Shown here piece after piece: positions 3,052-24,766 of a stretch of 34,071 nucleotides of DNA. The translations under genes and the position numbers were made by a program. The first letter of the stretch is position 1; every line of letters starts with the position of its first letter. The stretch spans positions 1 through 34,071 of the forward strand of contig DXJF01000046.1 in assembly GCA_019057375.1 (NCBI GenBank). Reading direction: 5' to 3'. The DNA comes from Candidatus Heimdallarchaeota archaeon. Its GTDB lineage: Archaea > Asgardarchaeota > Heimdallarchaeia > Heimdallarchaeales > Heimdallarchaeaceae. The notes under the pieces were generated by a model. It did no database searches and was not told the origin of the DNA. It saw only the letters and a program-made list of their open reading frames with translations.

Positions 3052-3647
3052 GTACCTTTCCTCCTCATATCCTTCCTAAACTGAATAAAGTCAATAATTT
3101 TGGATCCTAGGTTTTCAAAAGCGTTACTGACATTTTCATCAGTTTTAGCTGATGTTTCAAAGTATTCCACTTTAAAACCTCTCTCTTTGTATTTCTTGTT
3201 CAAAGTTTGAATATAAGTTGAAACTTTTGCTCTAATTTTCTCACGCGTGGCTGGTGATATTAAATCCATTTTGTTTCCTAAAATAGAGAATGGAACAATT
3301 CCTCTATCGGTTCCTGTTTCTAATTCTGCAATCCATTGATCCAGCTTCTTTAAAGTGGTCAATTTCTTCGCATCAAACACCATCAAAGCCCCCAAAGCAC
3401 CTTTGTAATACATCATACGAAGGTTCTCAAAGATTTTTTGTCCCGCAATATCCCAAATTTGGAAAAGTACGGAATAATCTTGAACTTTTTTTGGTAATGA
3501 GGCAAAGTCAGCACCAATAGTTTGGAGATGTTCTGTGATGAAACCTTCACCTAGATATGAACGGCGTAAACTTGTCTTCCCAACCCCAGCTTCACCGGCA
3601 AGTATAATCTTCAGATATAATTTTTGTCCATAGCTCAAAATATTCAC
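3048..3647 (-). CDS. Rab-like small GTPase (Ras superfamily), 199 aa
   Basis: All G motifs present: G1 GEAGVGKTS, G2 TIGADF, G3 WDIAGQ, G4 NKMD, G5 TSAK, plus the Rab-like YYKGA. GTG start. The protein contains no Cys. Confidence 0.95.
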   Translation of the reverse strand: MNILSYGQKLYLKIILAGEAGVGKTSLRRSYLGEGFITEHLQTIGADFASLPKKVQDYSVLFQIWDIAGQKIFENLRMMYYKGALGALMVFDAKKLTTLKKLDQWIAELETGTDRGIVPFSILGNKMDLISPATREKIRAKVSTYIQTLNKKYKERGFKVEYFETSAKTDENVSNAFENLGSKIIDFIQFRKDMRRKGT

Positions 3648-5408: not shown

Positions 5409-5557
5409 CTCGTATAGAGCTTTTCTTGTGAAACAGAGGTCTAGGTATTTATATATTTTTATGCTTCAAAAAATAGGAAAAATTTAAAAGTGTGTTCAAG
5501 CCATTTTTATCACTTACTCACAAGCGTAAATATGACAACTGGTTACAGGTGAACAAA

Positions 5558-5935
5558 ATGAGTGAAAAAGAAACAATTGAAAAAGAAGAACCAAAGAAGA
5601 AAACTCCTACTAAGAAAACTCCTGTCAAGAAAGCTACCGCAAAGAAACCTGAGAAACAACAAAGCCAAATAATCTACATCGGCAAGAAAAACACTATAAG
5701 TTATGTCTTAGTTGCAGTTACAATACTCAACAAGAGTGATACGTGTTCAATTCAGGCTCGTGGAAGACAGATCTCAAAGGCAGTAGATATTGCAGAAATT
5801 ACTAGAAGAAAGTTCTTACAGGACATGATAGAAATAGATGAGGTTAAAATCGGTTCTGAAGATATACAATCTGATGAAGAAGGCATACCACCTAAAACAG
5901 TCTCAACAATAGATATAATATTGAAGAAGAAATGA
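5558..5935 (+). CDS. albA: DNA/RNA-binding chromatin protein Alba with a Lys/Pro-rich N-terminal extension
   Basis: Alba motifs 'IYIGKK..SYV', 'IQARGRQISKAVDIAEI', 'VKIGSE', 'VSTIDIIL'. ATG 5558 is preferred over GTG 5492 because AGGTGA (RBS-like) lies at 5547-5552. Confidence 0.92.
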   Translation: MSEKETIEKEEPKKKTPTKKTPVKKATAKKPEKQQSQIIYIGKKNTISYVLVAVTILNKSDTCSIQARGRQISKAVDIAEITRRKFLQDMIEIDEVKIGSEDIQSDEEGIPPKTVSTIDIILKKK

Positions 5936-6018: not shown

Positions 6019-7428
6019 TTAGATAAAATCTCCTGTTTCTATTTTTTGAGGTAAATAGAAATTTGTAATATATTGAGGATCTCTTGCATTTAAGGCTTGT
6101 ATTTCAGCTTTGTAACCACTAGCAAGTAATATTTGCAATTGTTCTTCCCATCTTGGCTTTCGTTTTACAAACTCTTCTTCTAACATTAATTTAGATCTGT
6201 GAATGTCTTTAGATGTTAGCTTAAGTAAAGCACTTCGGGGAATGTCAAATCCACTTTCTTGAGATAAATCACTTGGAAGTAATCCCAACCATTTGATGTT
6301 AGGAACAGCTAAATGGCTAGATTCAAAACTTAACGCTTTACTACCAACACTATAAACTCTCATAATCTCAAAACCGTAAGGATCAGCATCCATTATTGCG
6401 AATATGGGGATGTTCAAATCATCATTTATCTTCTTAAGGAACTGTCTTGTAGCTATATCAGGTTGGCCTTTAGCAGTTATCAAAATACTTGGAACATAAT
6501 CGTAGAAGTGATCTTCAGCTAAACGATTGAAAACAGCATCTTTCTCTATAACTAAACACATTTCTGCATCAGTATCAAAATCGTCTATATCATCAATATT
6601 GGGAGAGATAGCTTTCCCAGCACCAATTGCTCTGCAGTCGATTAAATCTCCTTTTTCCTTGAAGCTAATTCTTCCTACAACTATTCCTTTGGAGGATGCA
6701 CTCACATTAAGAGAAGATCTAGTTACCTGAAGCATTGCTCCAAGATCTTCAACTAAGGAATCTGAAACGGATTGCTTTTCAAAGGAATTAACATCCATAT
6801 AGAAAATATCTCTTTTTGTACTGTGTATGTCTCTCGAAAGAATATTATGAATTATTTTCATAATTATGGTCATTTGTTCAACTGAACTGACAGAAGAAAG
6901 GCTTCTAAATTGTCGTTCAATCAACTGTCTGCCGATTAACACAAGTTCTTGTTCTTCATCAAAACCCACATTTGATCCACTTCTAGAAGGAATGTAAAAC
7001 GACGCGTCAGAGGGAACAGCAATAGCTTGTTTTAGAAAATCTAAAGCATATTCAACAAGTAAATTATTTGTATCTTGAGATGATTTTGTTTCTACATGAG
7101 TTACACCATAAGGCATGAAATATTCCTTCCTTTCTAGAAGATCTTGCTTTAAAGCTTGAACTTTTTCCAAAGTAACAGTTCTTTTAACACTCACACTCAT
7201 TGTAGTTTTTTCTAAAGGATATCTAGATAATTTTTTGGTTGGTTCAAGCAGATACCACTTTCTACCACTTCGCAGAAACAGAACGAAAGATCCTCTCTTT
7301 AAATCAAAAGTATCTCTCGCCCATCCATACATTTCTCTTGTAACTATTTCTTTACCAAAATTTACTGCACGCTCTGTTGCAGGCAAAACTGTTGAATTTG
7401 AAAAAATAAACTTGCTCATATCTGTCAT
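6019..7428 (-). CDS. top6A: DNA topoisomerase VI subunit A (Spo11 family), 469 aa, with N-terminal extension
   Basis: Catalytic Tyr motif 'STKRDIFY', Toprim 'VIEKDAVF' and 'MDADPYG', plus 'LITAKGQPD' and 'KAEIQAL'. The ATG overlaps the top6B TGA (ATGA, 7425-7428). Confidence 0.95.
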   Translation of the reverse strand: MTDMSKFIFSNSTVLPATERAVNFGKEIVTREMYGWARDTFDLKRGSFVLFLRSGRKWYLLEPTKKLSRYPLEKTTMSVSVKRTVTLEKVQALKQDLLERKEYFMPYGVTHVETKSSQDTNNLLVEYALDFLKQAIAVPSDASFYIPSRSGSNVGFDEEQELVLIGRQLIERQFRSLSSVSSVEQMTIIMKIIHNILSRDIHSTKRDIFYMDVNSFEKQSVSDSLVEDLGAMLQVTRSSLNVSASSKGIVVGRISFKEKGDLIDCRAIGAGKAISPNIDDIDDFDTDAEMCLVIEKDAVFNRLAEDHFYDYVPSILITAKGQPDIATRQFLKKINDDLNIPIFAIMDADPYGFEIMRVYSVGSKALSFESSHLAVPNIKWLGLLPSDLSQESGFDIPRSALLKLTSKDIHRSKLMLEEEFVKRKPRWEEQLQILLASGYKAEIQALNARDPQYITNFYLPQKIETGDFI

Positions 7429-10400
7429 TTATCTCCACCCTTTGAATTAGTTGATGATGTTTTATTCGTCTTTGAAGATGTTTTCTTCTGCCCAGGTCTA
7501 GCAGCTAAATCTAATAAAGTAGTTTGTTTTGTTGAAGCCTTAGTTGGTACTTTCTTAGGTGTCATTTTTGTAGCTTGGGGTTTCATAGTAGTAGTTTTGG
7601 AAATCGGTTTTACAACTGGTTTGGCTGTTGCAGGTTTCTTAACAGGTTTCTTAATAGGTTTCTTAATAGGTTTCTTAATAGGTTTTTTAGCAGGTGGTTT
7701 GGTAGCAATCTTAGCTTTTGTTATTTTTATTTTCTTCAAGGGCAGTTTACTTTTGATTCTCTTAATAGCAACATAACTAAGGTTTGTCTTTCCATCAAGT
7801 GTTGATGATGGGTATACTGCAAATTCCCTAAATGTTGTTATGCCTAATTGTTTAATCTGTTTAACAATTTCAGTATCTACATCGATTTCGTCGATTTTCT
7901 TATTCAGATGTTTCTTTAAATCAGATACTTGTTGTAATTTCAAAACAGTTGATTTCTTTTTGTCTTCTGAAGGAAACATTATTTCTTGGAGTGATACAAA
8001 GCCTGAATTCCGTAATGATACTACAGATGATCCTTCTAAATAGGGCAATGTTTCTTTTACAAGAATTTGATCTTTTTGTGCTAATTTAATTGATTGGTCT
8101 GTTAATGTTGATAGATAACTTTTAACCTGTCTATCGGTAATCTTGATGATTTTTGCCAAATCTTTTGAATTGTATGCATAGACATCCCACAAGTTGAAAA
8201 TACCTTTCTCATACAATGCAAAAACACTACTAGGATTATCTCTAATCATATCTGTCAAATAGTAGACTGGAGATTCAAGTATTCGATTTATTTTTGTTAA
8301 GATTACACTTCTAATCTTAGATGAAATGGCAAGAATTTCAGCGGATATGTTTAGATGGGAAATTGTAGAATATCCAGTTCTAATTAATTGCTTCTTTGAA
8401 TTTTCATCAATAAAGCTAACTTTCGAAACAGGATATAAATTTGATAAGAGTTGATTAATACTGATGAAATTAAGCTGTTTGATTATAGTTTGCATTAATG
8501 TTTGTTGTTTTTCAGTTAAATTGGATTTTATTTGTTTGTTGATATCAGCAGGTAAAACTAGGTCTAATACTTGATGAATATTCAAATCTCTTAGCTTCTT
8601 AAGTAGAGTTTGATCAAGTGTAAATATTGATAATGGAGCCCTCAAAACTGAAAGAATCTGTTCGAACTCCTGTTCCAAATCTTGGGCAGATGTTATTTTA
8701 ACATGATTAATGAGGGGTCCAAAAGTTCTAATTTTCTTCCTTTTTAGAAACTGCAAGTATTCAGTCGTTCTAAAAAAGCTGCTAAACCTGCTTTGTTCAT
8801 TACTCACCGATTGAGTTATCTTATCAAATTTCAGCACGTATAAAATATCTGAACATAACGCTCTAGATTCTGCTTTTTGAGTAGTTTTACAGAAGGTTAG
8901 AAGATCATACACATTACTCAGTTTCAGTCTAATTACTTCATCTGATTTTCTTTTATCCTGTATTATACTTGGAAGTGCTGTTAAGTCAGTTTCCATAATT
9001 TTACTTATTTTATTGCAAATAATCAGAACCTTAGAATCACCCTTCTTACTCTGTTCAAGAAAGACTAAAGCTTCTTCTATTGATTTGATATTACTTTTAT
9101 TTAGTGTATTCACTTCATTTGTTGAAAGAAGGGAAGATGGAAACGATGTAAGATTCCGCGATAATTCTTGGAATGAAACTAAAGAGAGGTTTCGGACATT
9201 ACGTTGCACATTTTTGTCAGAAATCTGATTATATAGTTGTTTTAGGGACAACAATAGAAGCTGACTTATCTTCTTGTATTTGGTAGTGGATATTTGATGA
9301 ATAGTATCAGCGGTTAGTTTGGTTAATATTACAGGAGAACGATTTAGAAACGAGAAAAGTGATTCAATTGTTGGTTTTATTTTGTCATGTAATTTACGCC
9401 AAATTTCATCAAACATTTGAATATTATATTTTTCAAGAAGAAGTAAATATTCAATTGACATTTCTGGACAATGAGATTTCTTAGCACTAGGGTCAATGTT
9501 CAGAATTGTGCATAATTGTGTCCCTTTGGAGAAGAAGAAATCTGCCGTTGATTCGATTAATTCTTTCTGTTTTTTAGTTATAGCTAGGTTTTCTGTACTA
9601 TTAATGAGGAAGAGTAAATCAAGTATTGTTAATGATTCATCAAGTTTAGGTTCATATTTCTTGATATCGAATGTTTGAATGAAATCCATTTTTGGTTTAA
9701 TTGTCTTAGGTATAGCTTTGTCAGAGTAGAGGTTTTCAATTAGCTGACCATATGTTTTGTAACCTATATTGTTTAGCTTATCTATTTCCCGTTGTGAAAA
9801 AATTATATTGGATTTCAATGAGGGTTCTCTAATCATGTTCTCAACGTTGAATGAACTCCTTATCTTAGGAATATCACTTTGAGGAATTGAAAGGAAAGAT
9901 GAAAGATCCTTGTCAGAGAGTTTTAAGAGATCTGTTACAGTATCATTCGATGAGTTGAGTTTCTTCCAAACTTTAAGAGATATTCTAGGGACCATAATTA
10001 GTTTTACAGGTGTTGTAAGTGTCCTCTGAACCTTATTGATTAAAGTTCTAGAAACTTCAAAATCTTCTGATTCAATTGCATATAGAATTTCGTCTACAGT
10101 TTGATAATAAGCACTAATTTCTTTGATTGTTTCAGCATCAAACACACCTAGAGATGAAACATCAGGACGCTTTCTGATTTGGCTTTTTATTTTACTTAAT
10201 GTCAATGTTGATAGTAATGTGAGAACCTTAGAACCTGTTGATTTAGCCGAAAATTCAATCCAATAAGTTTGAGATTTGACAAGAATATCCATAATTAGGA
10301 AATTGTTATTCTCATTAAGATTCTTAACATCGCTTGCAGTCAATTTCGACAAGGCTGAAAGAGGATGTTTAAGTGTTCTAAGTATTTTCCTGTTAGGTTC

Positions 10401-13400
10401 TGATATCTTTTCATAATTTTTATACAATTCTGAGAGAAAATCATTTAGCTGCTTAATATTCTTCTTAGGAATAGATTTCGAAAGTGCAGCTAATTCTGTC
10501 TCGGAAAAGAGTTGAGCAGCGGTAATATATTCTGTGTCCAATTGCTCATCTACTAAAGCAAACTCTTGTAGAAAAACAATAATTTTCTCTGTTTCAGTCT
10601 TATCAACTGAACTAAGAAGATCTTGGATGCTAAAGATTTCTTTGCTATAATATTGCTTCTCGATTTCTGAAATAGTCAATTTGGTTATGTTTGGATAGTA
10701 AAGTATAGATGTTTCCAGAATCGTTTCAATTTTATCTTTGATCTTTTTGAGCTTATTCTCTGAAATTAACCAAGAATAAGTTGAATATTCGTTTAAATCA
10801 GATATACTATAAATTCCAATTGACTTTAGGAAGTCCTTATCAGTGTTAGATAATAAGAAGAATTCGCGATCAACTGATTCTATATTTACATCTATTTTTT
10901 GTTTTAATTCTTCATATATGATTGAATCTATTGTAGTTGTTATTTTTGATATACTCATTTTTGTTTGGGTTGCAATTGTTTTTGGTGAAACTACCAATAA
11001 ATCAGATATTGTAAAAATACCTGAACGCTTCAATCTACTATAATCTGTAGATTCTAAATCTAGAAAGCGTAAATTGGCTAGTAGATAAGGAGCAAATTTT
11101 GAAAACAGTTCTTTATCTGTCTTAAAATTCGCTGAAGTTAGTAAAGAGGTATAAGAATAATATCCTCTTTTCTGAAGATCTTGTTCAGTTTCAGATAATG
11201 ATTCAACAAACCCTACTTCTGAAATTGTTTTAATTGCTCTCAGGGAAGGAGTAATTTCATCACGTATTTTCTTCGGATGATCCTTGAAATAAATCAATAA
11301 ATCTTCAATGATTTGAAAATTATTACTCAAACAATATTCAATTGTCTCATTTGTTAAATTAGGCAAGATACTAACGCTTCTACTCAACCTATCTCTTAAT
11401 TCAAGAAGATCAGTGAGTTTGATTTTACCTTTAGAAGTCAAATAAGTGTCGGGCACATAAAGAAGATGATCCACTGTGGATAATCCTGTCTGTAACATTG
11501 AAGTTGTCACTGATTTGGTCAACCCTAGTTCTTCTATTGACATACCAAACTTTTGGATGCCGTATAACTGTTTAATCAGATATGTAGGATCAGTTTGCTG
11601 CTTGGTTATCAACTTCTTAAGACTGGAAGGCCATTTTTCTTGAGGTATTTCCAACAAATCAGTATATGTGAATATTTTTTCGTCTACTAATTGGTCAATA
11701 TTCTTTCTGCTCATTTTCAGAACTTTACCAATTAATGTAATAGGAGTTTGAAGTATAGAGACTAGTTCTCTGACACTTTGCATCTCGTCTTCAGTTAGAG
11801 GAAGCTCGGTTATCTGTAGATGTGCAGCTTGTGTTAGTGAAACACACCCATGTTCCATCAAAACCCTCTTTATCTTATCATTAAGTTTTCCAATAAATTG
11901 TATATCTAATCCGACTAGTTTTGCATTTGATTCAAGAACTTCTAAATTAATGTTTAGCTTTAATTCCTCTATTTTTTCTTCACTTACATTCATAAAATGG
12001 GATAAATAAGATACAGGCATTAATAAGAAATGGAATACATTTCTTACACCTTTTTGTTTCAATTTCTTAACATTGGATACAGATAAGCCATCTATAGATG
12101 CAACACTGAAATTCTTCAGTGAGAGTAGTATTGACCTTAACTCCTCATACACAGAATGATTTTTAATAATGCTACTATTCAAAGAAAGCAATTCATCCAA
12201 ATATAGTATTTTAGCTGTTTTTAGCTTCCTCAAAAGCTTCTGATCTTTGATGAGATTTAAGTCAGCAAGTTTAAGTGACCATATGGGAGGTTTTATTCTG
12301 AAGAGGTTCTCATTGACCACTTCTTTAAATGTAGAATAAAACTGTTCAGAGAAATGTCTGGTATCAGTTGATTGTTTATCATCATCCAGCATCAAGAGAG
12401 CAGAAATGATGTTGTTTACCTTCTTATCTCTAAAAACAAATAAATCTTCTAGTTTGAGATCTGAATAATCTATTAACCAAGTCACAGGTTTGAATAAGTT
12501 TGCTGTAGCAGTACTAAGAAGATCTTTCTCCTTATTTGTTAATTCAAACAAAGGATGGTGCATAAAATCAAAAAGGAATAGAGCGGTGGTTAGACCATAG
12601 TTCTTGAATTTTCCTTGTATTTCCTTAGGTAAACTAAGTTTTTGTTCAATATATGGCGAGAATGTTTCTGACATTCTAACACTTAGATTGAAGCTGCGTT
12701 GAAACTCTCTTATAGCTCTAATTACTTCTCTTGGAATATCTATGAGGTCTTGAATATTAGTTGAGATTAGTTCAATCACATGTTTAATTCCTATATTCCA
12801 AAGAACCGCTTTAGTTTCAATGTCAAAATATTTAAGAGAAAGAGTACTCAAGCTAAGGAAACTTACCAACTGCTCAACAAATGATATGTTGGTGATTTTT
12901 TCTATTCTTTCAGTTTCAGTGAATTGCAATAAATGTTCAGGGACAAACCCAAACAAATCCTCAACAGTTTTCTTTGAAGGTTCAAAATAAAGATCCCTTA
13001 AAATATTGAGAATTGGTTCATTTAGTAACAGTTCAGTTCCCTTGATCAGAGTGAAATTACCCTTTCGAACTTCAGTGATTTCTTTACTAATTTTTCCACC
13101 TAAAGCATTCTTTAATTCTGAGTCATTAGTGCATAAGAAATCGATAACTCTAAGAATACCCATTTGTGACAATTTTATTTTTGTTGCTGGTGTTAATTCC
13201 TTAATACGGTAAATTGACACATTACAGCTGTTAAGAAAGTCTCTCAGAACTTCATCAGAAACATTAGCTATTGTAAAAGCCTGATAATATTGACTATAGA
13301 CATCCTGAACCAGATCCCTATCAGATTTTAGTAGATAGTTCACTGTTGACCTGGAAAGAACAGGAAAATCTGTAAGTTTTACCCCTTTCTTTTCTATTTC

Positions 13401-16400
13401 TTCAAGAAGGTTTTCAGAGTTTATCTTTTCCAGGTACTTTCGTACTTCATCCTCTTCCATGTCTAGAATTATTGCGATGGTTGAAACATCTTCAGTAATG
13501 AATGAAAGTATATCTCCTACTCCTGAATAAACTAATTTCTGTACTTGTTGATTATTCAAACCAAGGAAGGCAACTGATGAAAGATATAACTGAACATCAC
13601 GAAATACATCAAGCTTAACTAAATGAGGGTGAGAATCTCTTAATTCAGACATTCTAGAATTGAAGTCTTGAATTGAGTTTATACCCAAATGCTTAATCTT
13701 CTCAAGATAATCTTCTTCTATTGAAGGTAATAATTCTAAAGATAAAGCGGTTTCTGCTCTCTTATCTGCAACTTCATCAATGGAGAGAATATCTAGTGCA
13801 TGAAATTCCTTGTAAATTGGATTCTGTGTTATATGAAATAATTCTTTTTTGTCTAATAAAGCTAAATCTATAATGGAATTAATATCATAAAATTCTAACC
13901 TTTTGATCTCATCAGAGGCCAAAAAGCCAATAAATCTTATTGAGCCTGAGAGAATTTCCTTCACTTTTGCATAGTTTTCAACTGGCAAAACTGAAGATAT
14001 GTTCTGTGTTTCAGCTGAATAATAAAGTGATTCAATATCAAGAATACCTATCTTCTTCAAGGATTCAATATGATTATCTGTTATTAGTACAGAAGCAACA
14101 ATGGCATGGGTTTGAGCTTTTTTAAATGATTGAATTAATGAATAATCAAGATTATCTTGAATTTCTCTGATATATCTTTGAGGTATTCCTGTTATTTCTG
14201 AAATTGTTTTAACTGGTGTTGAGAAGAAGTCTATTAATGTGTTAATTGATGACTTACTTAATTTCAGAGCCAATTCTCTTGGTAATCCCATTGAGGAAAT
14301 TGGAACTGCTAAATCAGCAACCATGTTATTTAAAGAATCAACTTCCTGCAATTTGTTATAAAACGGAGCTAAAGCTGAATGTTCTACTAAATCGATGTCA
14401 AATACGTCACCAATTTTAGTATTTTTGTACTCCTCTCTTCTAATCTTCTTGATTCTATTGAAAAATGGAGTTATTCTTATAGGAAGTTCGAGAAGAGCTC
14501 GAATAAGTGTTAAATTATAATTATCAGTAAGAGAGTGTTTATCTTTTGAGAGAAGAAGTGAAATTACTTTTGTATCAGTAACAACATCTGAAAGTGTTTT
14601 TTCTTCAAAATCTTGAACTATATTCCTGAAGAATGAAGAATTGTAAACAGATGATGGTAGTTTTGCAAAATAATGGAAAGCACGCATTTCTAGCATTTTA
14701 GAGGAATATGTGGAAATTGACCTATAAAGAACAGGATCTTTTATTTCTTCATCAGGAAGGAAGAGAAGTTGGTGCACATACTTGATATTATTATGTTCCC
14801 ATACCTCTAGCGAATATTCTGATATTTCAGTGAAGATTCTTAATGGTAAATCTAGCACCTTTTTAACAGCTGATACTTTCGACCACAAATCTGGGTTTGA
14901 TGGATAGAATTCTTCCTCTACGACATAATATATTTCTTGAATTGTCTGAAATCTTTCAAATTGGATAATTGAATCACGGCTTAACTGTCTTTGTTCTAAT
15001 TTGTCAAATAACTTTGTTTCTGCAGCAAATATTCCTTTATCTTCATATGAAGCTTGTATGGTCTGAGCAGTTAACGAATTTTTTACTGCAGCTAGATCTT
15101 TAGATGGGATTTCCAGTAATTTAGTCAATTTCTGATTTGATGTTAGAATGAAATCAGCTATGGTTGGAATTTTATTTTCTCTTAAAATCTCTGTCTTTTC
15201 AAATGTTAGAGAGGGGATGTAGTAACTTGGTAGCGTTAAAGTACCCAGTATATCAGATAATGCTAGTCCTCGCTTAATATTTTCAAAACGTTCATCTGGG
15301 ATTCCAGTTTTTTCCATTAAATTCTCTGGTGAGATAAGCATGAATCCTAGCAGAGTTGTAATTTCAACTTTCTTCAGGATTTCAATTAGTTCCTTATCCA
15401 GCATATCGGAGATATATTTCAGTGGTAAGTTCAATACTTGTTTGAATGATTTAATAATCTTCCATGGGAGTTCAGAAACTCCCCATTCGCGTTCAGAAGT
15501 GGAAAAATAAAGGTCTTCAATTGTAACTAAATTATATTCTTCCAGGATATCAACTATATTTGGCTTAAAGATATCTAGCTCTGAAAGATCTGTTCCAGTG
15601 TCACTTATTCTTAAGTTTCTTTGCATTAATGCAGCTTCTTTTGGACTAATATTCAAGATAGACTCAAGAATATCTTTCTTAACGATCAGTAAATCAACAA
15701 TTCTTGAAATTCCACTATTTCTAAGTGTGTTCAATTGATCGGTAGAAAGAGTAGATATTTGAATTTCTTCGACTTCCTTTGTCGTTTCAGTGTCTTCATC
15801 CTGCACTTTTTTCTTAACAACTTTTTCCCAAGCTACTAATGTGAGGGGGGATCTCAATAGTTTTCTAAACTTGTCAATTACATTCCAATGTACTAAAGAA
15901 GCAGAAAATGTTAAGGGGTGGGATAAGAAGAAAATCTTGTCAACTGAATCATAACCTGCTAGAATCAGTGATTCAATTTCATGAGCGGAAAACCGCTCAG
16001 ATTCTTCATATTCAAAGGAAATTAAGGATTTTAACCGGTTTCTTTCTCCTTTTATAAAGAAACTAGTTCCTTTCTGCTCAATTTTGAAATCCTTAAATAT
16101 CTGATTAATTCCATCTTCAGTTTTGTTAAGAATAGTTTCCAATTCTTTTGTGGAGTATTCAAATAATTGATGTATTGCAATAATGTTTCTTGTTCGTAAA
16201 TCTTCAAATTCTTTTAAAGTAAAATTACTAATTCTCGATATCGGTAAACTTAAAGCTCTTTCAAACTCATCATATTCACTAATCAATAACACTTGTTTGT
16301 TTAAGTCACTTGTTTCCTCAATATCTCTATTCTTTATCATGTGATAGAGTTCCAAGATAACTTTTCTATGGGAAGCTGAAGATAGCTCAGATTCAATGAT

Positions 16401-19400
16401 TTCAGGAATAAGATCTAGAAATTGCTTAATAGTTATAATGTTCCTTGCATTTAATCTTAAAAGAGCTTCTTTTACTTCATTTAATTTCTTTTGATTCTTA
16501 GAGAATAATTGTGCAAGTTCAATAATTTCAAGCTGAGAGAGCTTGCTCAAGTGCTCAATTTTCTTCCATAATCCCTGCGATAAACTTACTTTTTCTGAGG
16601 AGTAGAGATAAAATAAATCCTGAAGGGGTTCTTCAATTCCTCCAAAATAGGTGATTAATCTTGGAAATAGACTGTTCAACTGAGATAGAGGTTTACTGAG
16701 TGCTTTTCTATTCTTATCGATTTCTGCTAAAGAAACAGCATCTTTCATTTCTTTTATTTCTTCTATTTTGTAACCCAAAATACTTGCTAATTCTTCATTA
16801 GGCCAGATCAAAAAGCGACCCAAGCAGTTAATCCCTACTTCTTTCAATAAGTAAGACGATCTTCTAAGTTGTGGGAATGGGAATATGATAGGTGTTCTGA
16901 GAACATTTGCTAATTCAAAATATTTCTTTTTCTTCTCTGCTGAAAATGAATAAGATTCAGCGGAATTGAAGAACAGCTCCTCCAGTACAATAATCCCACA
17001 TTCTTTTAGCAAATCTTCGTGGCCCATCCACTTTGGCAATGGCGTTCCAAGCGTTTTCTTAATCTGGTCAACTTCTCTCTTCTTTAGACCCATTTTTCTT
17101 AATTGAGGTGAAGAATAGGAGAGAAAGGTTGAAGAATTAAAGATCTGGTTCCGGTGTAGTTCTGTTTCCACATTATTAGGTATAATCTTAATGTGACTAG
17201 AATTATGATCTTTTTCAGATATTTGCAGAGAAGACAAGATTGTGAATTTTGTTTCTTTCATAAGTAGTTCTGCGAAATCAACTAATTTCTTATCATGAAT
17301 TTCTTCAGCTGCAAAATATAACAACTGAGCCAAAGTTTTTACACCCTTGGTGGCCAATGATTTGATCACCAAAGCTTCATCACTTTTGAGACCCTTACTC
17401 TCGATAAACTCAAAAGCTGAAAGATTGATTGATGGAGATTGTTTAACAAGAAGTTCTAGATAGGTTGAATACAAAGTCCTTTCCATTTCTTTAACTTGTA
17501 CAAGGTCATCTGTAGAAGTGTTAATGAAGCTCTCAATAGTTCTAATTTTTCTCCTATGAAAAGCATTTTTTGTATATCCATCTGTCCAATCAGGAGTCAT
17601 TTTGGTTATGTTTGTGGCTTTGAATGTAGGAAACTTATTTGACATTTTAATGAATACTTCTTTTAAGTAATCAATGAATATCGCTGTTAATTCCTGTTGA
17701 TAATTAATCTCATTGGGAAGTTGTGTTTGATAAATGAACTCTTCAACAGTTAAATCAGCTGCTAGAATTTCATTTGACAGCTTCTTGAAGACTTTGAAAG
17801 GTGGGAAGAGATGTTCAATTTTTAATTGACCTTTGGCTGCCAAAGAATCAATACGATTTTGGCTTTTAGGATAAGTCTTTGATCCATCTTTTTTTCTGTT
17901 CTGGAGTAAAAGTTGATTAATTAGTTCATCTTTCTTATTCTCAAATAATTTCTCTAAGAGACCGGAGACTGTTTTTAATTTTACAAATTCAGTAGCTAAA
18001 TAATGGTAACTATTTTGAATCCATCTTCGATTTAAAGCATCTTTTAATGAAATAGATATTTTGTCAAATCGTTTCTCTACAGCTCTTGAAACAAAGATTT
18101 TAGAGTCGAATTGAGGACTTAGTCCTTCCTTATCTAATTCATAGATAGTTCTTAATTTAATGTTGTAAATAGATTTTTCATCAAGTGTTAAAATAGGAAT
18201 TAAATCCTTAGTTGGTGTTAGTAGGAAATCAGAAACTGACAAGATATTCTTGTTCTTTAATATATTTTGAGTTGATGTAGGGCACCAAATATTTAGACCG
18301 AAAAGTCTTTGTCCCAAGGGCATGAATAACTTTGCTTTTTTAGGAGAGCCATGAGCTAAAGAAGATGCAATTCTATTCTTCTCAAATCGAAAATCAGCCA
18401 TCCCGATACCTTCATCCTCAATAATCTGAGATAGATTTTCAACAATTATGGGCGCAGATTTGACGAATCGTGATAGTCTAGCATGCTCTCTTCGTCTTCT
18501 TTTAGCCCTACCCAAGAAAGTCTTTAATCTTCTTCCAAGTTGTTGCAGAGCTAATCTTATTTCTTCTTCAATCTCTGGAACAATAGAGATATATTCTTTA
18601 CTTGTCTCTGGAAAAGGTATTTTTGTACTAACTACTGAAACTGTAACAGCTAAAGGATCTGATTGTCTAGTAAGCCCATATTCATTCCATCTTATGGAAG
18701 AAACAACATGACTAATAACATCATTACCTGCACCAAAAATCAGAGGGATTCTGTTTGCATATCTGTAGATTATCTTATTATCTTGAACATTAGCACCTCG
18801 TTGTTGAGAAGCTTCTGTTACACCTCCACCATAACCTATGGCAGCTTCAACCACAAACGGATGTCCAGAATAAGCTTTTGGAGGCCTAGAAATAGCTTCA
18901 GCAAATTTAGGATTTAATTCTTTTTCAAGCCCTCTCTTCAATCTCCCTGCACCAAGAGGAGAAAGTGCTGTCCCTTTTGGTGGATCAAACTGAAAAACTC
19001 TATCACGTTTTCGTTTTACTTCTTTTGCTTCTTGATAGGCTTTCACAAATCCTTCATGTACAATTCTACGTATTTCTTTTGAAGTTAACTCGTTAGGATG
19101 TTTATTAGGATCTATTTCTAATAACTGAAAGAAATCTTCAGCAATTTCTTTGGTTACTCCCATAAATTGATTCGCAAGAAACTCTTTGAGTTTTTTATCA
19201 TTATTTGCGCTCAATTCAGCTTTGAACTGTGTGATATCACACCCATATGGATGAATCTTGACAACTTGAGGAGGAGGGGGCATATCATCTACAACACTCT
19301 CAAAAATGAATTCTTCAAATTCACCCTCTTTATCACCTGGTATTTTTACTTGGAAAGAGGAATAAGGAGTGATTATCGCTAGTTGTCTAAAGTATTCTCT

Positions 19401-20042
19401 AACGCTGTTCTTGGCGAGATTCCATGCACCAGTAAATGTAATTGAAATTTCAGTTCCTGCTTCTTCAAGATAACTCTCATCCCCGGGAAGAAATTCTCGT
19501 TGCTCCATAATTATGGGTTCATTTTTCTCAAGATTGATCATTAAATGCATTTCATGTGTTATATCATCCATGAAATATCTTGATCTAATTTTAGCTGGGA
19601 GGTCAACAGAAGACATGGAATACAATAAGCACATCTTGGCTCCTAAACCAAAACGTCCTCGTGTCTGAATAACTCCATACTTAGTTCCTGTGAGAACTCT
19701 ACCGAAAAGGTCAGCAATAAGATGTCCAGGAACACCTGTACCATTATCTGTACAAGTAAGTTGTAAGAAGTCTAGGTGTTTCTCTAATTTCTTATATTGT
19801 TTAACATCAAGAAGTTCATTTATTTCTCTACTAGATAATTTTCTTAAATCAATTGAGATGTTAGGATTTGTTCCTCTGTTTTCTGCAGCATCTAAGCCAT
19901 TTTCAACTAATTCGCGTATGCTGGTAAACACAGCTCGCATAGAATTTCCAAAGCCAGCAATTGCCCTATTTTCATTGAAAAAAGCAGCGGCAGACATCTT
20001 CTTAGTAACTGAATTTTCAGACACGTTTGTTACCTCTTCCAC
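7425..20042 (-). CDS. top6B: Giant DNA topoisomerase VI subunit B (4205 aa): GHKL ATPase, H2TH and transducer domains, then a tandem HhH-like array and a Lys-rich tail
   Basis: N-terminal motifs: 'IRELVENGLDAAE', 'DNGTGVP', 'GRVLTGTKY', 'QTRGRFGLGAK', 'GTEISI', 'PHPY/KIHPYG'-type region, 'RYANRIPL', 'WNEYGL', 'VSTKIPFPETSKEYI'. One uninterrupted ORF with a GTG start, directly upstream of top6A. Confidence 0.93.
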   Translation of the reverse strand: MEEVTNVSENSVTKKMSAAAFFNENRAIAGFGNSMRAVFTSIRELVENGLDAAENRGTNPNISIDLRKLSSREINELLDVKQYKKLEKHLDFLQLTCTDNGTGVPGHLIADLFGRVLTGTKYGVIQTRGRFGLGAKMCLLYSMSSVDLPAKIRSRYFMDDITHEMHLMINLEKNEPIIMEQREFLPGDESYLEEAGTEISITFTGAWNLAKNSVREYFRQLAIITPYSSFQVKIPGDKEGEFEEFIFESVVDDMPPPPQVVKIHPYGCDITQFKAELSANNDKKLKEFLANQFMGVTKEIAEDFFQLLEIDPNKHPNELTSKEIRRIVHEGFVKAYQEAKEVKRKRDRVFQFDPPKGTALSPLGAGRLKRGLEKELNPKFAEAISRPPKAYSGHPFVVEAAIGYGGGVTEASQQRGANVQDNKIIYRYANRIPLIFGAGNDVISHVVSSIRWNEYGLTRQSDPLAVTVSVVSTKIPFPETSKEYISIVPEIEEEIRLALQQLGRRLKTFLGRAKRRRREHARLSRFVKSAPIIVENLSQIIEDEGIGMADFRFEKNRIASSLAHGSPKKAKLFMPLGQRLFGLNIWCPTSTQNILKNKNILSVSDFLLTPTKDLIPILTLDEKSIYNIKLRTIYELDKEGLSPQFDSKIFVSRAVEKRFDKISISLKDALNRRWIQNSYHYLATEFVKLKTVSGLLEKLFENKKDELINQLLLQNRKKDGSKTYPKSQNRIDSLAAKGQLKIEHLFPPFKVFKKLSNEILAADLTVEEFIYQTQLPNEINYQQELTAIFIDYLKEVFIKMSNKFPTFKATNITKMTPDWTDGYTKNAFHRRKIRTIESFINTSTDDLVQVKEMERTLYSTYLELLVKQSPSINLSAFEFIESKGLKSDEALVIKSLATKGVKTLAQLLYFAAEEIHDKKLVDFAELLMKETKFTILSSLQISEKDHNSSHIKIIPNNVETELHRNQIFNSSTFLSYSSPQLRKMGLKKREVDQIKKTLGTPLPKWMGHEDLLKECGIIVLEELFFNSAESYSFSAEKKKKYFELANVLRTPIIFPFPQLRRSSYLLKEVGINCLGRFLIWPNEELASILGYKIEEIKEMKDAVSLAEIDKNRKALSKPLSQLNSLFPRLITYFGGIEEPLQDLFYLYSSEKVSLSQGLWKKIEHLSKLSQLEIIELAQLFSKNQKKLNEVKEALLRLNARNIITIKQFLDLIPEIIESELSSASHRKVILELYHMIKNRDIEETSDLNKQVLLISEYDEFERALSLPISRISNFTLKEFEDLRTRNIIAIHQLFEYSTKELETILNKTEDGINQIFKDFKIEQKGTSFFIKGERNRLKSLISFEYEESERFSAHEIESLILAGYDSVDKIFFLSHPLTFSASLVHWNVIDKFRKLLRSPLTLVAWEKVVKKKVQDEDTETTKEVEEIQISTLSTDQLNTLRNSGISRIVDLLIVKKDILESILNISPKEAALMQRNLRISDTGTDLSELDIFKPNIVDILEEYNLVTIEDLYFSTSEREWGVSELPWKIIKSFKQVLNLPLKYISDMLDKELIEILKKVEITTLLGFMLISPENLMEKTGIPDERFENIKRGLALSDILGTLTLPSYYIPSLTFEKTEILRENKIPTIADFILTSNQKLTKLLEIPSKDLAAVKNSLTAQTIQASYEDKGIFAAETKLFDKLEQRQLSRDSIIQFERFQTIQEIYYVVEEEFYPSNPDLWSKVSAVKKVLDLPLRIFTEISEYSLEVWEHNNIKYVHQLLFLPDEEIKDPVLYRSISTYSSKMLEMRAFHYFAKLPSSVYNSSFFRNIVQDFEEKTLSDVVTDTKVISLLLSKDKHSLTDNYNLTLIRALLELPIRITPFFNRIKKIRREEYKNTKIGDVFDIDLVEHSALAPFYNKLQEVDSLNNMVADLAVPISSMGLPRELALKLSKSSINTLIDFFSTPVKTISEITGIPQRYIREIQDNLDYSLIQSFKKAQTHAIVASVLITDNHIESLKKIGILDIESLYYSAETQNISSVLPVENYAKVKEILSGSIRFIGFLASDEIKRLEFYDINSIIDLALLDKKELFHITQNPIYKEFHALDILSIDEVADKRAETALSLELLPSIEEDYLEKIKHLGINSIQDFNSRMSELRDSHPHLVKLDVFRDVQLYLSSVAFLGLNNQQVQKLVYSGVGDILSFITEDVSTIAIILDMEEDEVRKYLEKINSENLLEEIEKKGVKLTDFPVLSRSTVNYLLKSDRDLVQDVYSQYYQAFTIANVSDEVLRDFLNSCNVSIYRIKELTPATKIKLSQMGILRVIDFLCTNDSELKNALGGKISKEITEVRKGNFTLIKGTELLLNEPILNILRDLYFEPSKKTVEDLFGFVPEHLLQFTETERIEKITNISFVEQLVSFLSLSTLSLKYFDIETKAVLWNIGIKHVIELISTNIQDLIDIPREVIRAIREFQRSFNLSVRMSETFSPYIEQKLSLPKEIQGKFKNYGLTTALFLFDFMHHPLFELTNKEKDLLSTATANLFKPVTWLIDYSDLKLEDLFVFRDKKVNNIISALLMLDDDKQSTDTRHFSEQFYSTFKEVVNENLFRIKPPIWSLKLADLNLIKDQKLLRKLKTAKILYLDELLSLNSSIIKNHSVYEELRSILLSLKNFSVASIDGLSVSNVKKLKQKGVRNVFHFLLMPVSYLSHFMNVSEEKIEELKLNINLEVLESNAKLVGLDIQFIGKLNDKIKRVLMEHGCVSLTQAAHLQITELPLTEDEMQSVRELVSILQTPITLIGKVLKMSRKNIDQLVDEKIFTYTDLLEIPQEKWPSSLKKLITKQQTDPTYLIKQLYGIQKFGMSIEELGLTKSVTTSMLQTGLSTVDHLLYVPDTYLTSKGKIKLTDLLELRDRLSRSVSILPNLTNETIEYCLSNNFQIIEDLLIYFKDHPKKIRDEITPSLRAIKTISEVGFVESLSETEQDLQKRGYYSYTSLLTSANFKTDKELFSKFAPYLLANLRFLDLESTDYSRLKRSGIFTISDLLVVSPKTIATQTKMSISKITTTIDSIIYEELKQKIDVNIESVDREFFLLSNTDKDFLKSIGIYSISDLNEYSTYSWLISENKLKKIKDKIETILETSILYYPNITKLTISEIEKQYYSKEIFSIQDLLSSVDKTETEKIIVFLQEFALVDEQLDTEYITAAQLFSETELAALSKSIPKKNIKQLNDFLSELYKNYEKISEPNRKILRTLKHPLSALSKLTASDVKNLNENNNFLIMDILVKSQTYWIEFSAKSTGSKVLTLLSTLTLSKIKSQIRKRPDVSSLGVFDAETIKEISAYYQTVDEILYAIESEDFEVSRTLINKVQRTLTTPVKLIMVPRISLKVWKKLNSSNDTVTDLLKLSDKDLSSFLSIPQSDIPKIRSSFNVENMIREPSLKSNIIFSQREIDKLNNIGYKTYGQLIENLYSDKAIPKTIKPKMDFIQTFDIKKYEPKLDESLTILDLLFLINSTENLAITKKQKELIESTADFFFSKGTQLCTILNIDPSAKKSHCPEMSIEYLLLLEKYNIQMFDEIWRKLHDKIKPTIESLFSFLNRSPVILTKLTADTIHQISTTKYKKISQLLLLSLKQLYNQISDKNVQRNVRNLSLVSFQELSRNLTSFPSSLLSTNEVNTLNKSNIKSIEEALVFLEQSKKGDSKVLIICNKISKIMETDLTALPSIIQDKRKSDEVIRLKLSNVYDLLTFCKTTQKAESRALCSDILYVLKFDKITQSVSNEQSRFSSFFRTTEYLQFLKRKKIRTFGPLINHVKITSAQDLEQEFEQILSVLRAPLSIFTLDQTLLKKLRDLNIHQVLDLVLPADINKQIKSNLTEKQQTLMQTIIKQLNFISINQLLSNLYPVSKVSFIDENSKKQLIRTGYSTISHLNISAEILAISSKIRSVILTKINRILESPVYYLTDMIRDNPSSVFALYEKGIFNLWDVYAYNSKDLAKIIKITDRQVKSYLSTLTDQSIKLAQKDQILVKETLPYLEGSSVVSLRNSGFVSLQEIMFPSEDKKKSTVLKLQQVSDLKKHLNKKIDEIDVDTEIVKQIKQLGITTFREFAVYPSSTLDGKTNLSYVAIKRIKSKLPLKKIKITKAKIATKPPAKKPIKKPIKKPIKKPVKKPATAKPVVKPISKTTTMKPQATKMTPKKVPTKASTKQTTLLDLAARPGQKKTSSKTNKTSSTNSKGGDK
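7632..7691. repeat. 12-bp tandem repeat x5 (aggtttcttaat and variants) encoding (A/I/V)KKP units in the Top6B tail
   Basis: aggtttcttaac aggtttcttaat aggtttcttaat aggtttcttaat aggttttttagc, read directly from the sequence. Confidence 0.9.
7740..18330 (-). repeat. Protein-level tandem array of roughly 45-50 (counted by eye) alpha-CTD/Rad51-N-like helical (HhH-type) units within Top6B
   Basis: Recurrent motif L-x-x-x-G/N-I-x-(T/S)-(I/V)-x-(D/E)-(L/F), often preceded by L-x-x-P-(I/L). Examples: 'LAVPISSMGLPRELALKLSKSSINTLIDFFSTPVKTISEITGIPQRYIREIQDNL' and 'YSRLKRSGIFTISDLLVVSPKTIATQTKMS'. Boundaries approximate. Confidence 0.75.
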
Positions 20043-20200: not shown

Positions 20201-23200
20201 TTAGTTATCTGGAATCGTTTCTTTTGGTTTAAATCTATGAAGAACTACTGAGGTAACGATGAAACCCATTGTAACTAAAAACATAGAACTAAAAGCACCA
20301 ATTGTACGGGAGGCATCTGCCCCTTTTATTACGTCTAAGAATTGTTCTTTAATATATTCATAAAATAGAAGTGTAGCAAAATGAACATCTTCTTGCCAGA
20401 AGATTGTTGCCATACTTCCTGGTAATGCAGGGAATGTTTGATGCCAAGTTGGATAGCGATGAATTGCAGGAAGGCTTTGAACAGAATCAGTGTATTTAGA
20501 ACTATTAAGGAGACTAAAAGCTTCCAGATAATTGGTTGCGAGTGTATTATATTGTATTCTATCTTCTCTTTTAACAACACTACCTGTTATTGGCTCGACC
20601 ATCATTGTTTGCTGGTGGAATGGATCTCTTCCTACTTGTCCTGGTAATGAGAATGTTAAGAATAAATCTTTTGGATCTAAATCTAGACCGTATATACTAT
20701 TCCATTTTCCAGCTTGAATTAAGCTTGCATTTATGAAGTTTGAAGCATGCATCCAGTATAAATCATATTCATCCATTTGAAGATAAGGCGTTCCTGCTTG
20801 CGCTGAATAGACGTGCACAGTTTCATCAAAGAAAAGTGCTGATTCTGTTAGAGATGAATAAGCAAACGGTCTTAGGAAGAGTTCATTCCATTGTAGTCTA
20901 TATCCTTTTTCTATGTCTGGTTGAACAGCAAATGAGTCATATGTATAATTAAACTCTAATTCAGTTACTGGACCCAAATCCCAGAGATTAAATTGAACTT
21001 TGCTATCTCTTTTCCAGCATTCAACAAATGTATGAAGTTCATCTTTTTCAACGAAATCAAATTGACTAGTAAGATAGTTAAACTCTAAATGAACTAGTCC
21101 TTGTTCGTAATCTCCTAAATAGACATCATTACCATCAACATAGATACCTAAAGCTGTTCCGAGATGGTCAGTTCCATTGAATCTATAATGTTCTGATGGG
21201 GTGCTTCTGTCTGTGATATCTACAACCATAAACCCATCGTTACCTTGAGTTAAATAGGCTTGAGTTCCAAAGACATATATGTCATTGAAAGGCTCATCTC
21301 CAGGATATGTACCAAATTGACCTAGTTCAGTTAAGGTTTCGTCTGATTCTATTTGGAAAATTAGTAATCCTTCAACTGCATCTAAGACATAAAGATAATT
21401 ACCTTCAACTGTTACATCTCTTACATCTTTCAAATTTGAGAAGTTAGCTGAATCATAATGCCATAATAGTTCCATGTCATTGATATCCTCTATGTCTATC
21501 ACATCAATTCCATCAGTTCCTAAAGCAACAAAAGCTTCAGCATGTGAATAGTCAACTCTTGCATCAACAGCAATAGCTACACCAGAAGTATTTAGGAAGG
21601 TATAAACAGAACTAACAGATTTGGTATCATCATTAAGAGAGGCAATTCTTAATCCATAAATACCATTAGCTATTACTAAAGCATCAGAAGGTGTTGCACC
21701 AATAGTATAAACCACTTTATCAACACCTCTCATATCATTATTTCCAAAATTCCACTGAGTAATTTGATCGATTGAGTATGGATTTGTTGCATTGAGAACT
21801 TCTAAACCATTAGTTCCCTCTAATGCATAGATATATCCATCAATTGCAGTAAAATCATAGATTTGACCATCATAATCTCCAAACTGACCGATTGCTCTGA
21901 AGAGTGAGTCAGTGGTATTTACTATTTTGATATCAGTTCCATCTTCCAGAACATATGCAAGGTTATCGACCATAACTACATCCATTGATTTAGCGTATTC
22001 ATAATAGGGTAAGTTTGCTATTCCAATTATAGAACCTAGTTCTTCAATGTTATTCATACCTAATTTTTCAGCATAATAAACGTCTAAGTCCCTATCTATA
22101 CTCGCTGAAGATAGTGTTTCATTTATAAGTAATGGAAATTTCAAACCGTTTAGTAACGGGTCCTCGATACCAACAACCCATTCCATTGCAGTTCTTTCAC
22201 AGATATATGATATTTTGTTATTGTATAACCAATCAAGTGATGGCTTTCCTAGAAGATAACTCATATATGCTGCAAAAGATTTTGCTGATTCAATTTCTGT
22301 TGGAGTATCAATGTCGTAAACGTCAGCTAATAGTTGTACAACATCTACTGTTAAATCATCAGGTTCAGTATAATCTAATCCTCTTACTAAATCCAAGAAG
22401 AATTTTGCAGAGCCTGTGTCGCCACTTAATACTGAATAATCATTTCCTCCATAAGTTGCGTTATAGAGTATTTTATAGCTTGTTGCTTGATCGAAATCTA
22501 AATCTTGGAAAGCTGGACGAACACTTATCCAATTGTGAGGTAGATATGTTCCAGTTTCCACTAAACCTTCACTTTCTGCATAAGCTTTGTTTAAAACTGC
22601 ATGAGCAATTTCACTATAAGAGTAAGTTGAGTTGAGAAGATCTACATCAGATCCTAAGAGATAAGAAGCTATGTAAGCTTGAAAACCGTACTCTGTACCA
22701 TTTCCGAATTTTTCAATATAATAAGGCCACATATAATTAAAATTCAGAACTGTCTCATTGCCAAATAATGTGGACTCTGTAGAATTATAGATATACTGCT
22801 TTCTACTAGTAAAAACGATATAATCCTCTTCCTTATTGTAATCAAATATCGTTTTATTGATAATTATATCAAATACAAGTTCCCCTTGCACATAGAAATA
22901 AGAGATTGGTGTACTATAATCCAGGTAACCTTCACGATCACTCACGTTGAAGAATTCGATAAATGCTTGATCATAAAAATTTGACTCATTAGTACTTCTA
23001 GCTGTATGCATCCAGTCAGAATATGTACCAGTACCATCATTAGGTATTATATCCTCTTCAGTTAACTGTCCAAATTCTGTTAAATTAGCATTAATTTCGT
23101 CAATTATATTATTTGAATTAATCGGCAGAATTACTCCAATCACAACAGCAGAACTAATGGTAACTGTCAGAATCAAAGCGCCTATTAGTGTTCGAAGTCT

Positions 23201-24698: not shown

Positions 24699-24766
24699 TT
24701 TATGTTTCAAATATATTAGGTTACAATGATTTTTAAGACTTTTCAGCTAGCTACATAAAAAAGAGA

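Follow-up and report, generated by a model that had tools for sequence, protein, structure and literature searches.

The stretch of DNA analysed here (the window) comprises 34,071 nucleotides of Candidatus Heimdallarchaeota archaeon (GenBank assembly GCA_019057375.1, contig DXJF01000046.1, positions 1 to 34,071) and has a GC content of about 32%. Between positions 7425 and 20042 of its minus strand lies top6B, the gene for the B subunit of DNA topoisomerase VI (Top6B, Topo VI), which opens with GTG and runs for 4205 codons before its stop; the orthologues share an in-frame ATG at codon 16. The product is about eight times the normal size of a Top6B and is the sole Top6B of its genome, an assembly of 3.47 Mb in 159 contigs that is 89% complete. 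Public records label the gene merely as "DNA topoisomerase VI subunit B". A canonical catalytic core is followed by a very long arm of modules of the helix-hairpin-helix (HhH) type and by a short basic tail, and top6A lies next to it on the same strand:

6019–7428, minus strand: top6A, 469 amino acids (TP6A_N, E = 4e-21; TOP6A-Spo11_Toprim, E = 2e-58)
7428–7742, minus strand: Lys/Pro/Thr-rich, low-complexity basic tail of Top6B (residues 4101–4205; net charge +30, isoelectric point (pI) 11.1)
7506–7529, minus strand: conserved motif K-Q-T-T-L-L-D-L in the otherwise variable tail (residues 4172–4179)
7631–7695: 12-bp tandem DNA repeat, 5.4 copies, encoding the KKPI/KKPV units of the tail
7743–18407, minus strand: arm of Top6B (residues 546–4100), about 55–58 predicted modules of the (HhH)2 type seen in the Rad51 N-terminal domain (Rad51-N) and the C-terminal domain of the RNA polymerase alpha subunit (alpha-CTD), in about 29 two-module super-repeats (from Pfam, hidden Markov models, structural models and dN/dS)
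18408–20042, minus strand: Top6B core (residues 1–545) with GHKL ATPase, H2TH and transducer domains (from NCBIfam, Pfam and the alignment with 2zbk_B)

Residues 11–544 match the NCBIfam equivalogs for Top6B, with 449 bits against a cut-off of 274 for NF003218 (E = 2e-134) and 386.9 bits against 380.7 for TIGR01052, and Pfam places Topo-VIb_trans at residues 355–520 (E = 6.5e-53). The core aligns end to end with the Top6B of S. shibatae (2zbk_B, E = 5e-86), and in this alignment the Bergerat-fold motifs ELVENGLDA, DNGTGVP and QTRGRFGLGAK (N box, G1 and G2) are kept, while the anchoring Asn (YANRIP) and the switch Lys (TSKE), counted manually, fall on N375 and K427. The WKxY motif of canonical Top6B reads WNEY here, and there are two small inserts relative to 2zbk_B. 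Downstream, the start of top6A overlaps the stop of top6B as ATGA, with a GGTGGAG stretch just 5' of the top6A start; the two genes are translationally coupled, and they stand side by side in all complete loci, whichever of the length classes described below these belong to. All of the sequence features tested (ATPase motifs, transducer residues, equivalog scores and the adjacent top6A) agree, and it is near certain that the protein belongs to the Top6B family. A preliminary description, made from the letters of the window, had read a single open reading frame (ORF) of about 12.6 kb with a complete Top6B core; this stands, at 4205 codons and with the catalytic motifs aligned to 2zbk_B, although its core of about 570 residues shortens to about 545 by the ends of the profile and alignment matches. 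Since the genome holds one Top6B only, paired with top6A, an A2B2 enzyme would carry two arms of about 3550 amino acids each, as had been supposed.

An open frame of 4205 codons in such AT-rich DNA could not have arisen by chance. The window is part of a fragmented metagenome-assembled genome, and the possibility was considered that the giant ORF is an artefact, whether through misassembly, through fusion of two genes by read-through or through pseudogene decay; no point in favour of this was found. A word-indexed search of 5.8 billion proteins returned 16 giant relatives at 34–93% identity, of which the complete-looking ones have 4161–4341 amino acids, from ENA, Logan, NCBI and JGI assemblies, and a scan for the transducer domain in 400 genomes of the phylum found ORFs of 4140–4305 amino acids throughout the family to which the window belongs. 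Giant orthologues occur in at least 20 independent assemblies, including the two closed single-contig genomes of Ca. Heimdallarchaeum aukensis PM71 (CP084166) and Ca. H. endolithica PR6 (CP084167). Fourteen full-length giants are colinear and essentially gap-free across the approximately 3550 residues that follow the core, with identities of 75–98% in the core and 35–93% beyond it. Against close relatives, the ratio of nonsynonymous to synonymous substitution rates (dN/dS) is 0.04–0.05 in the core, 0.12–0.15 in both halves of the arm and 0.29–0.47 in the terminal tail, that is, purifying selection acts along the whole length. Together with the confident AlphaFold models given below, these observations make an artefact extremely improbable: misassembly and pseudogene decay are ruled out by the orthologues in independent and closed genomes, the gap-free alignment and the dN/dS values, and a stop or assembly break after the core, which would have undone the preliminary description, is contradicted by the same full-length orthologues. 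We regard the identity and the architecture of the giant Top6B as near certain.

The arm is built from modules of about 60–64 amino acids. Conservation among the 14 orthologues is periodic at about 123 amino acids, with harmonics at 244 and about 370, which corresponds to two modules, one of them better conserved. RAD51D_N scores 82 bits over the whole protein and up to 58.2 bits in a single 400-residue piece (Pfam cut-off 27.3), RNA_pol_A_CTD reaches 23.9 bits against a cut-off of 23.8 in the first such piece, and HHH_5 and IMS_HHH_1 give weaker matches in the arm pieces. The giant orthologues carry the precomputed annotation PF26169 (HHH_XRCC3_RpoA). Matches from the Atlas feature search all scored below 0.85 and were used as leads only. 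A hidden Markov model iterated over the 14 orthologues recovered 20 strong units of about 48 amino acids, and a shorter hairpin model found 44 positions; for 24 of these, seven or more of the 14 have the motif at the corresponding point of the alignment. The consensus of the unit, L-S-x-E-x-h-x-K-L-K-x-x-G-I-x-T-h-x-D-F-L-x-x-P-x-x-E-L-x-x-I-L-G-I-S-x-K-E-I-x-x-I-K-x-x-L, is what we take to be the pattern of two hairpins shared by alpha-CTD and the N-terminal domain of Rad51/RadA.

BLASTP comparison of each of the 14 giants with itself gave no off-diagonal high-scoring segment pair at E ≤ 1e-3, so that block duplications are not reconstructable; judged by their sequences, the copies are old and very diverged. 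A scan of BLOSUM scores by lag gave a peak at 488 amino acids (z = 4.2), a hint that was not relied upon. Profile searches of the PDB with arm alignments of 700–800 columns gave marginal matches (E = 0.003–0.05) to alpha-CTD, DMC1 and RAD51D, consistent with the Pfam results and not decisive alone. In 1.84 billion representative proteins, a profile of residues 1400–2200 had 60 matches at E ≤ 1e-3, 32 of them at E ≤ 1e-30; the strong matches were long proteins, and among ten weaker ones scanned with Pfam, one was a Top6B fragment and seven carried RAD51D_N or alpha-CTD-type domains.

Two segments of the arm were modelled with AlphaFold, using 33 homologous segments for residues 545–1250 and 22 for residues 1400–2200 (confidence is given as the predicted local distance difference test, pLDDT, and the predicted template modelling score, pTM):

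16293–18410, minus strand: residues 545–1250 (706 residues), 10–11 modules, pLDDT 87.5, pTM 0.76
13443–15845, minus strand: residues 1400–2200 (801 residues), 13 modules, pLDDT 87.1, pTM 0.76
15750–15836, minus strand: predicted long beta-hairpin insert between modules, about 29 charged residues (residues 1403–1431), pLDDT about 67–74

Apart from this one beta-hairpin both models are all-helical and lack long low-confidence linkers, the first containing a single short disordered loop at residues 719–728. In both, a pattern of helix, hairpin, short helix, short helix and long helix repeats every 60–64 residues or so, and the 23–24 modules in the 1507 modelled residues (42% of the approximately 3555 residues of the arm) extrapolate to about 55–58 for the whole. 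A pTM of 0.76 for such long chains suggests that neighbouring modules are packed in a fixed arrangement. Foldseek found nothing in the PDB at E ≤ 0.001 for the 706-residue model, the top row being Methanopyrus topoisomerase V (Topo V; 8df7_A, E = 0.16, template modelling (TM) score 0.10). Whole-arm comparison being uninformative in this way, single modules were read from the VIA-align lists, where they superpose with Z = 5–8.1 and a root mean square deviation (rmsd) of 1.8–3.4 over most of each target domain. The targets are the N-domains of RAD51D, RAD51C and XRCC3, as well as Rad51, Dmc1, RadA and RNA polymerase alpha-CTD, and further the HhH domains of Hel308/Hjm, Pol iota and NusA, and SAM domains. 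On the N-domains of RAD51D, RAD51C, XRCC3, Rad51, Dmc1 and RadA, the modules reach up to Z = 8.1, at an rmsd of 1.8–2.9 over 56–64 residues. Examples are 9q23_D (Z = 8.1, rmsd 2.9 over 60 residues), the RAD51C N-domain 8gj9_B (Z = 7.9 over 64/64 residues), 9q2a_B (Z = 7.6, rmsd 1.8) and the alpha-CTD 1z3e_B (Z = 6.0, rmsd 2.4 over 63/67 residues; alpha-CTD range Z = 6–6.9). Z values below 8 are common for helical models and five module positions dominate the lists, so these scores were counted jointly with Pfam. The SAM domains match in fold (Z = 5–6.8), but the sole SAM-type match in sequence, SAM_EPH, stays at 15.2 bits, below its cut-off of 27.

On sequence and models together it is near certain that the modules belong to the Rad51-N/alpha-CTD (HhH)2 family, outside the class with the canonical GhG HhH motif, and the arm is, on the same footing, a continuous folded chain of modules, conserved module by module. 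The likeness to alpha-CTD or the Rad51 N-terminal domain that the preliminary description had noticed is thus borne out both by Pfam, with RAD51D_N and RNA_pol_A_CTD above their cut-offs in arm pieces and HHH_5 weaker, and by the segment models, whose modules superpose on these folds even though the whole-model search had no significant match. Its tandem, diverged helical repeats are upheld as well; its count of 45–50 is replaced by the 55–58 extrapolated from the models.

The net charge of the arm is −1 over 3555 residues (pI 7.3). Taken in blocks of 122 amino acids, it starts proximally at +8, +3 and +4, drops to between −8 and −10 mid-arm and climbs back to +2 to +6 distally, whereas the arms of relatives are acidic, at −49 to −115 (pI 5.1–5.7). 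The charge of single modules varies between −5 and +5, and for each module the orthologues agree in its value. The canonical hairpin h-x-x-h-x-G-h-G-x-x-x-A occurs once in 3545 arm residues, unlike in the 1108-residue relatives, which have four, with flanking Lys, in 448 arm residues; about 20 modules keep a Rad51-like second hairpin, G-I-S-x-K. The Lys-rich C-terminal tail of about 105 amino acids is disordered, and at the dN/dS given above its sequence is loosely constrained while its basic character is conserved. Basic tails (+16 to +40) are found in four of the five long classes, the arms of the Hodarchaeales type being without one. Within the tail, K-Q-T-T-L-[LM]-D-[LMV] is kept in nearly all sequences of the window's family and resembles the PCNA-interacting peptide (PIP) box, Q-x-x-[LIM]-x-x-[FYW]-[FYW], in having Gln as its first residue and an aliphatic one as its fourth. 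A comparison with QATLFDFL as a PIP peptide of archaeal RFC-L was not used, as a literature search did not find this peptide.

A survey of Top6B length in Asgard genomes, which the preliminary description had proposed as a check, was made by searching with the core for longer proteins and by the scan of the phylum; it returned discrete classes of about 1.1k, 2.3k, 3.5k and 4.2k amino acids across the Heimdallarchaeia. The classes are listed by genome family (f1 is the family of the window):

about 500–680 amino acids, most Asgard archaea: ordinary Top6B
about 1108–1121 amino acids, family f7: a second, short Top6B is present in the same genomes
about 2290–2350 amino acids, f5 (Hodarchaeales type) and f28
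about 3470–3590 amino acids, f3 and f4: source names point to Kariarchaeaceae
4140–4305 amino acids, f1 (Heimdallarchaeaceae) and f2: the longest arm

In the relatives the net charge of the arm lies near −50 for the 2.3k class, between −53 and −90 for the 3.5k class and at −115 for f2. The shorter arms are colinear with the first 2000–2700 or so residues of the 4205-residue protein (two relatives that mapped off-register, L021 and L043, were excluded from one alignment). The last 190 or so residues of the arm were compared with the 2.3k class as a possible orthologous cap common to both; end-to-end matches recur, with other registers scoring equally. In a maximum-likelihood tree of 39 cores, which omits L103 because its longest ORF lacks a full Top6B, one branch, supported at 100/100, separates all 23 arm-bearing proteins from the rest. 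Rooted at the midpoint, the root not being established, this tree nests the classes in the order 1.1k, 2.3k and 3.5–4.2k, which is consistent with a single origin of the arm followed by stepwise lengthening. Heimdallarchaeota AB_125 belongs to the same genus as the window. In f7 (G080–G090) there are two Top6B copies, one of about 500 amino acids, which groups with ordinary Asgard Top6B, and one of about 1110, whose HhH modules are of the canonical GhG kind and which contains a Lys/Pro linker in its interior.

The genome of the window also encodes GyrA, in a frame of 836 amino acids on a contig (C145) other than that of top6B. GyrA is present in 26/26 genomes of f1, 1/1 of f2, 3/3 of f3, 8/9 of f4, 18/19 of f5 and 2/2 of f6; it was not detected in any of the nine genomes of f7, the family with the 1.1k arm, at 82–92% completeness. 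All complete ORFs of f1–f5 have arms of at least 2.3k amino acids, and the sole ORF of f6 ends at a contig edge after 1359. C-terminal extensions of Top6B have been proposed to arise in gyrase-bearing archaea (PMC9348778), and the C-terminal domain (CTD) of the M. mazei protein may localise the enzyme (PMC13040014); the distribution of gyrase fits both ideas. Hodarchaeales-type genomes with the 2.3k arm have a gyrA-top6B-top6A cluster in which gyrA stands immediately 5' on the same strand (G071:C23, G058:C9, G066:C1, G069:C68 and others). Several f1 genomes have GyrA frames of 1270–1726 amino acids in which the Pfam match is split (G015:C1:2232384–2235035, G016, G022, G026, G037 and others), the pattern expected for intein insertions.

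Canonical archaeal Top6B proteins (S. shibatae, 2ZBK/1MX0, 530 amino acids; M. mazei, 2Q2E, 621 amino acids) have the same GHKL-H2TH-transducer core and the same operon pairing with top6A, and a lineage-specific appendage after the transducer is a known theme among gyrase-bearing archaea (PMC9348778). The difference lies in the appendage, which has about 3650 amino acids here against 0–100 in canonical Top6B, and which consists of about 55–58 HhH modules and a basic tail rather than the single Ig-like domain of the M. mazei CTD. M. kandleri Topo V, a type IC enzyme with 12 tandem (HhH)2 domains (PMC9489208), shares the design of a catalytic domain followed by a train of (HhH)2 domains. The catalytic cores are unrelated (type IC against type IIB), and the train here is about five times longer, of the Rad51-N/alpha-CTD subtype without GhG, and not basic. 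Topo V also carries AP-lyase sites. A single module shares its fold and sequence pattern with Rad51, RadA, Dmc1, the RAD51 paralogues and bacterial alpha-CTD, but in these the (HhH)2 domain occurs once per chain, against some 55–58 tandem copies, alternately better and worse conserved, in the arm. To our knowledge no other natural tandem array of (HhH)2-type domains is as long.

The shorter arm-bearing Top6B proteins of the Heimdallarchaeia (about 1.1k; about 2.3k, Hodarchaeales type; about 3.5k, Kariarchaeaceae type) lie on the same side of the core tree, are colinear and have top6A downstream. Compared with them, the arm of the Heimdallarchaeaceae is the longest, is neutral rather than acidic, and ends in a tail with KQTTLLD; the 1.1k class, unlike the Heimdallarchaeaceae, keeps canonical GhG hairpins, has a second, short Top6B and lacks a detected GyrA. 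We found no HhH-extended or giant Top6B in papers on the evolution of Topo VI (PMC11302465, PMC9665070, PMC9348778), in a paper on the Asgard replisome (PMC12680538) or in wider literature searches. An extended-data figure of Wu et al. 2022 (PMC8813620) lists Asgard proteins of more than 3000 amino acids with their CDD domains and may include the giant Top6B; the text of that paper does not mention a topoisomerase. As the preliminary description had believed, no earlier account of this architecture was found in the searchable literature.

Several other features of the locus were recorded. NCBIfam models of Top6A begin to align only at residue 110–143 or so, leaving about 110 extra residues at its N-terminus; the extension is common to f1–f4 (tblastn alignments start at residues 1–11) and partial in the lineages with the 2.3k arm (starts at residues 41–79). 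The remaining genes are as follows:

700–3647, minus strand: a Ras/Roc/Arf-like small GTPase (199 amino acids) immediately 5' of a 783-residue HEAT-repeat protein on the same strand
5492–5935, plus strand: an Alba-domain protein (Pfam E = 1.6e-14, residues 60–122) with an N-terminal extension of about 59 residues, convergent with top6A and outside its operon
20201–23209, minus strand: a 1002-residue LVIVD-repeat protein (Pfam E = 3e-9; weak CD36 match) directly 5' of top6B, with hydrophobic segments at its ends
23448–24710, minus strand: an ORF of 420 amino acids near the tubulin/FtsZ-family gene, without a Pfam match
27620–28759, plus strand: a tubulin/FtsZ-family GTPase (Pfam E = 3.7e-10)
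30576–31829, plus strand: a TnpB/Cas12f-like protein (OrfB_IS605 and Cas12f1-like TNB domains), which points to an IS200/IS605-type element near the locus

The C-terminus of the LVIVD protein adjoins top6B in most f1 loci, a synteny kept within that family.

What the arm does was weighed with these data. Our preferred interpretation, to which we give a probability of roughly 0.47, is that it is mainly a spacer and docking arm that tethers Topo VI through the distal basic tail. It would be a rigid or semi-rigid spacer of fixed length and a docking platform, rather than a surface that binds DNA from end to end. DNA or chromatin would be held by the basic tail together with the mildly basic modules near either end of the arm; the conserved motif of the tail would dock a partner, for which PCNA is an unproven candidate; and the acidic to neutral middle would set the distance between the catalytic core and the anchor and may carry specific protein contacts. 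The decatenase would in this manner be localised or concentrated on the chromosome or replisome, and, in cells whose supercoiling is managed by gyrase, the arm could bring a second duplex some distance away within the enzyme's reach. A spacer with a terminal anchor is suggested by the neutral arm with its acidic middle, the acidic arms of relatives, the +30 tail, the recurrence of basic tails, the single GhG hairpin and the conserved KQTTLLD, and a fixed folded architecture by the confident models, the gap-free alignment down to 35% identity, the dN/dS of 0.12–0.15 and the conserved charge of each module.

A number of points tell against a spacer anchored by its tail. Rad51 N-domains and alpha-CTD bind DNA without canonical GhG hairpins, so that DNA binding by many modules is possible, given that about 20 of them keep G-I-S-x-K; net charge is a crude proxy for DNA binding, and the rigidity is read from the pTM of the 42% of the arm that was modelled. 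Since the Hodarchaeales-type arms have no basic tail, the anchor is not universal. In the f1 sequences the tail motif is without the two aromatic residues of a PIP box, positions 7–8 being L/M/V/I and then a variable residue, and it differs from the canonical PIP box QKSLDAFF at the end of the organism's own Fen1, so that docking to PCNA is a lead and not a finding. The correlation of gyrase with the arm comes from what is essentially one phylogenetic contrast.

The preliminary description had seen in the roughly 3500 residues a DNA-binding array working along its whole length like Topo V, which would bind, wrap, bridge or compact DNA and raise processivity. Members of the module family do bind nucleic acid (the Rad51 N-domain, alpha-CTD and domain 5 of Hel308), the proximal and distal thirds of the arm are mildly basic, and from the GhG-K hairpins of the 1108-residue relatives the ancestral short arm was probably DNA-binding. 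The Topo V row that headed the Foldseek output for the first model would point the same way, but it is insignificant. An array of this kind sits poorly with an arm that is neutral overall and strongly acidic in its relatives, in which GhG is nearly absent and several well-conserved modules stand at −4 to −5 in all orthologues; generic avidity would not need module-by-module orthology without change in copy number, and the one clearly basic stretch is the tail. We consider it unlikely as a description of the whole arm, and bridging or tethering through the ends of the arm is the plausible form in which it may survive. Another idea is that the arm is chiefly a protein-protein scaffold, its modules docking specific partners or self-associating with little DNA contact, which would place Topo VI in an assembly such as the replisome, the chromosome-segregation apparatus or the cell envelope. 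The conserved sequence and charge peculiar to each module, the fold matches to SAM domains and RAD51-paralogue N-domains, the acidic arms of relatives and the short linear motif in the tail would all suit this. Its weaknesses are that besides top6A no neighbour is conserved across all classes (the LVIVD gene is adjacent in f1 only), that no SAM family comes at or near its cut-off by sequence, and that the basic tail and basic arm ends favour some contact with DNA; we hold a pure scaffold to be distinctly unlikely.

The giant architecture is robust and occurs widely in the lineage nearest to eukaryotes, whose only B subunit of Topo VI has become one of the cell's largest proteins. Its appendage is under strong purifying selection, with a length that is fixed within families and differs between them, which points to a hitherto unnoticed means of controlling the place and manner in which a type II topoisomerase works on the archaeal chromosome, possibly by tethering, setting of distance or docking of partners. 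The meiotic Spo11/TopoVIBL machinery descends from Topo VI, and among known archaea the Heimdallarchaeia are the nearest relatives of eukaryotes. In a bolder version of the tethering spacer, which we regard as improbable, the arms are rigid rulers, plausibly of about 100 nm each, which lengthened stepwise after the gain of gyrase and whose tails, with the tail motif, fasten the cell's decatenase to a scaffold, a replisome or the axis of a chromosome. If this were true, the arm would have grown through 1.1k, 2.3k, 3.5k and 4.2k amino acids as chromosome organisation changed after the acquisition of gyrase, and archaea of the Heimdall lineage would already have possessed a scaffold-tethered type II topoisomerase, a functional forerunner of the chromatin-tethered Topo II and the axis-tethered Spo11-TopoVIBL of eukaryotes.

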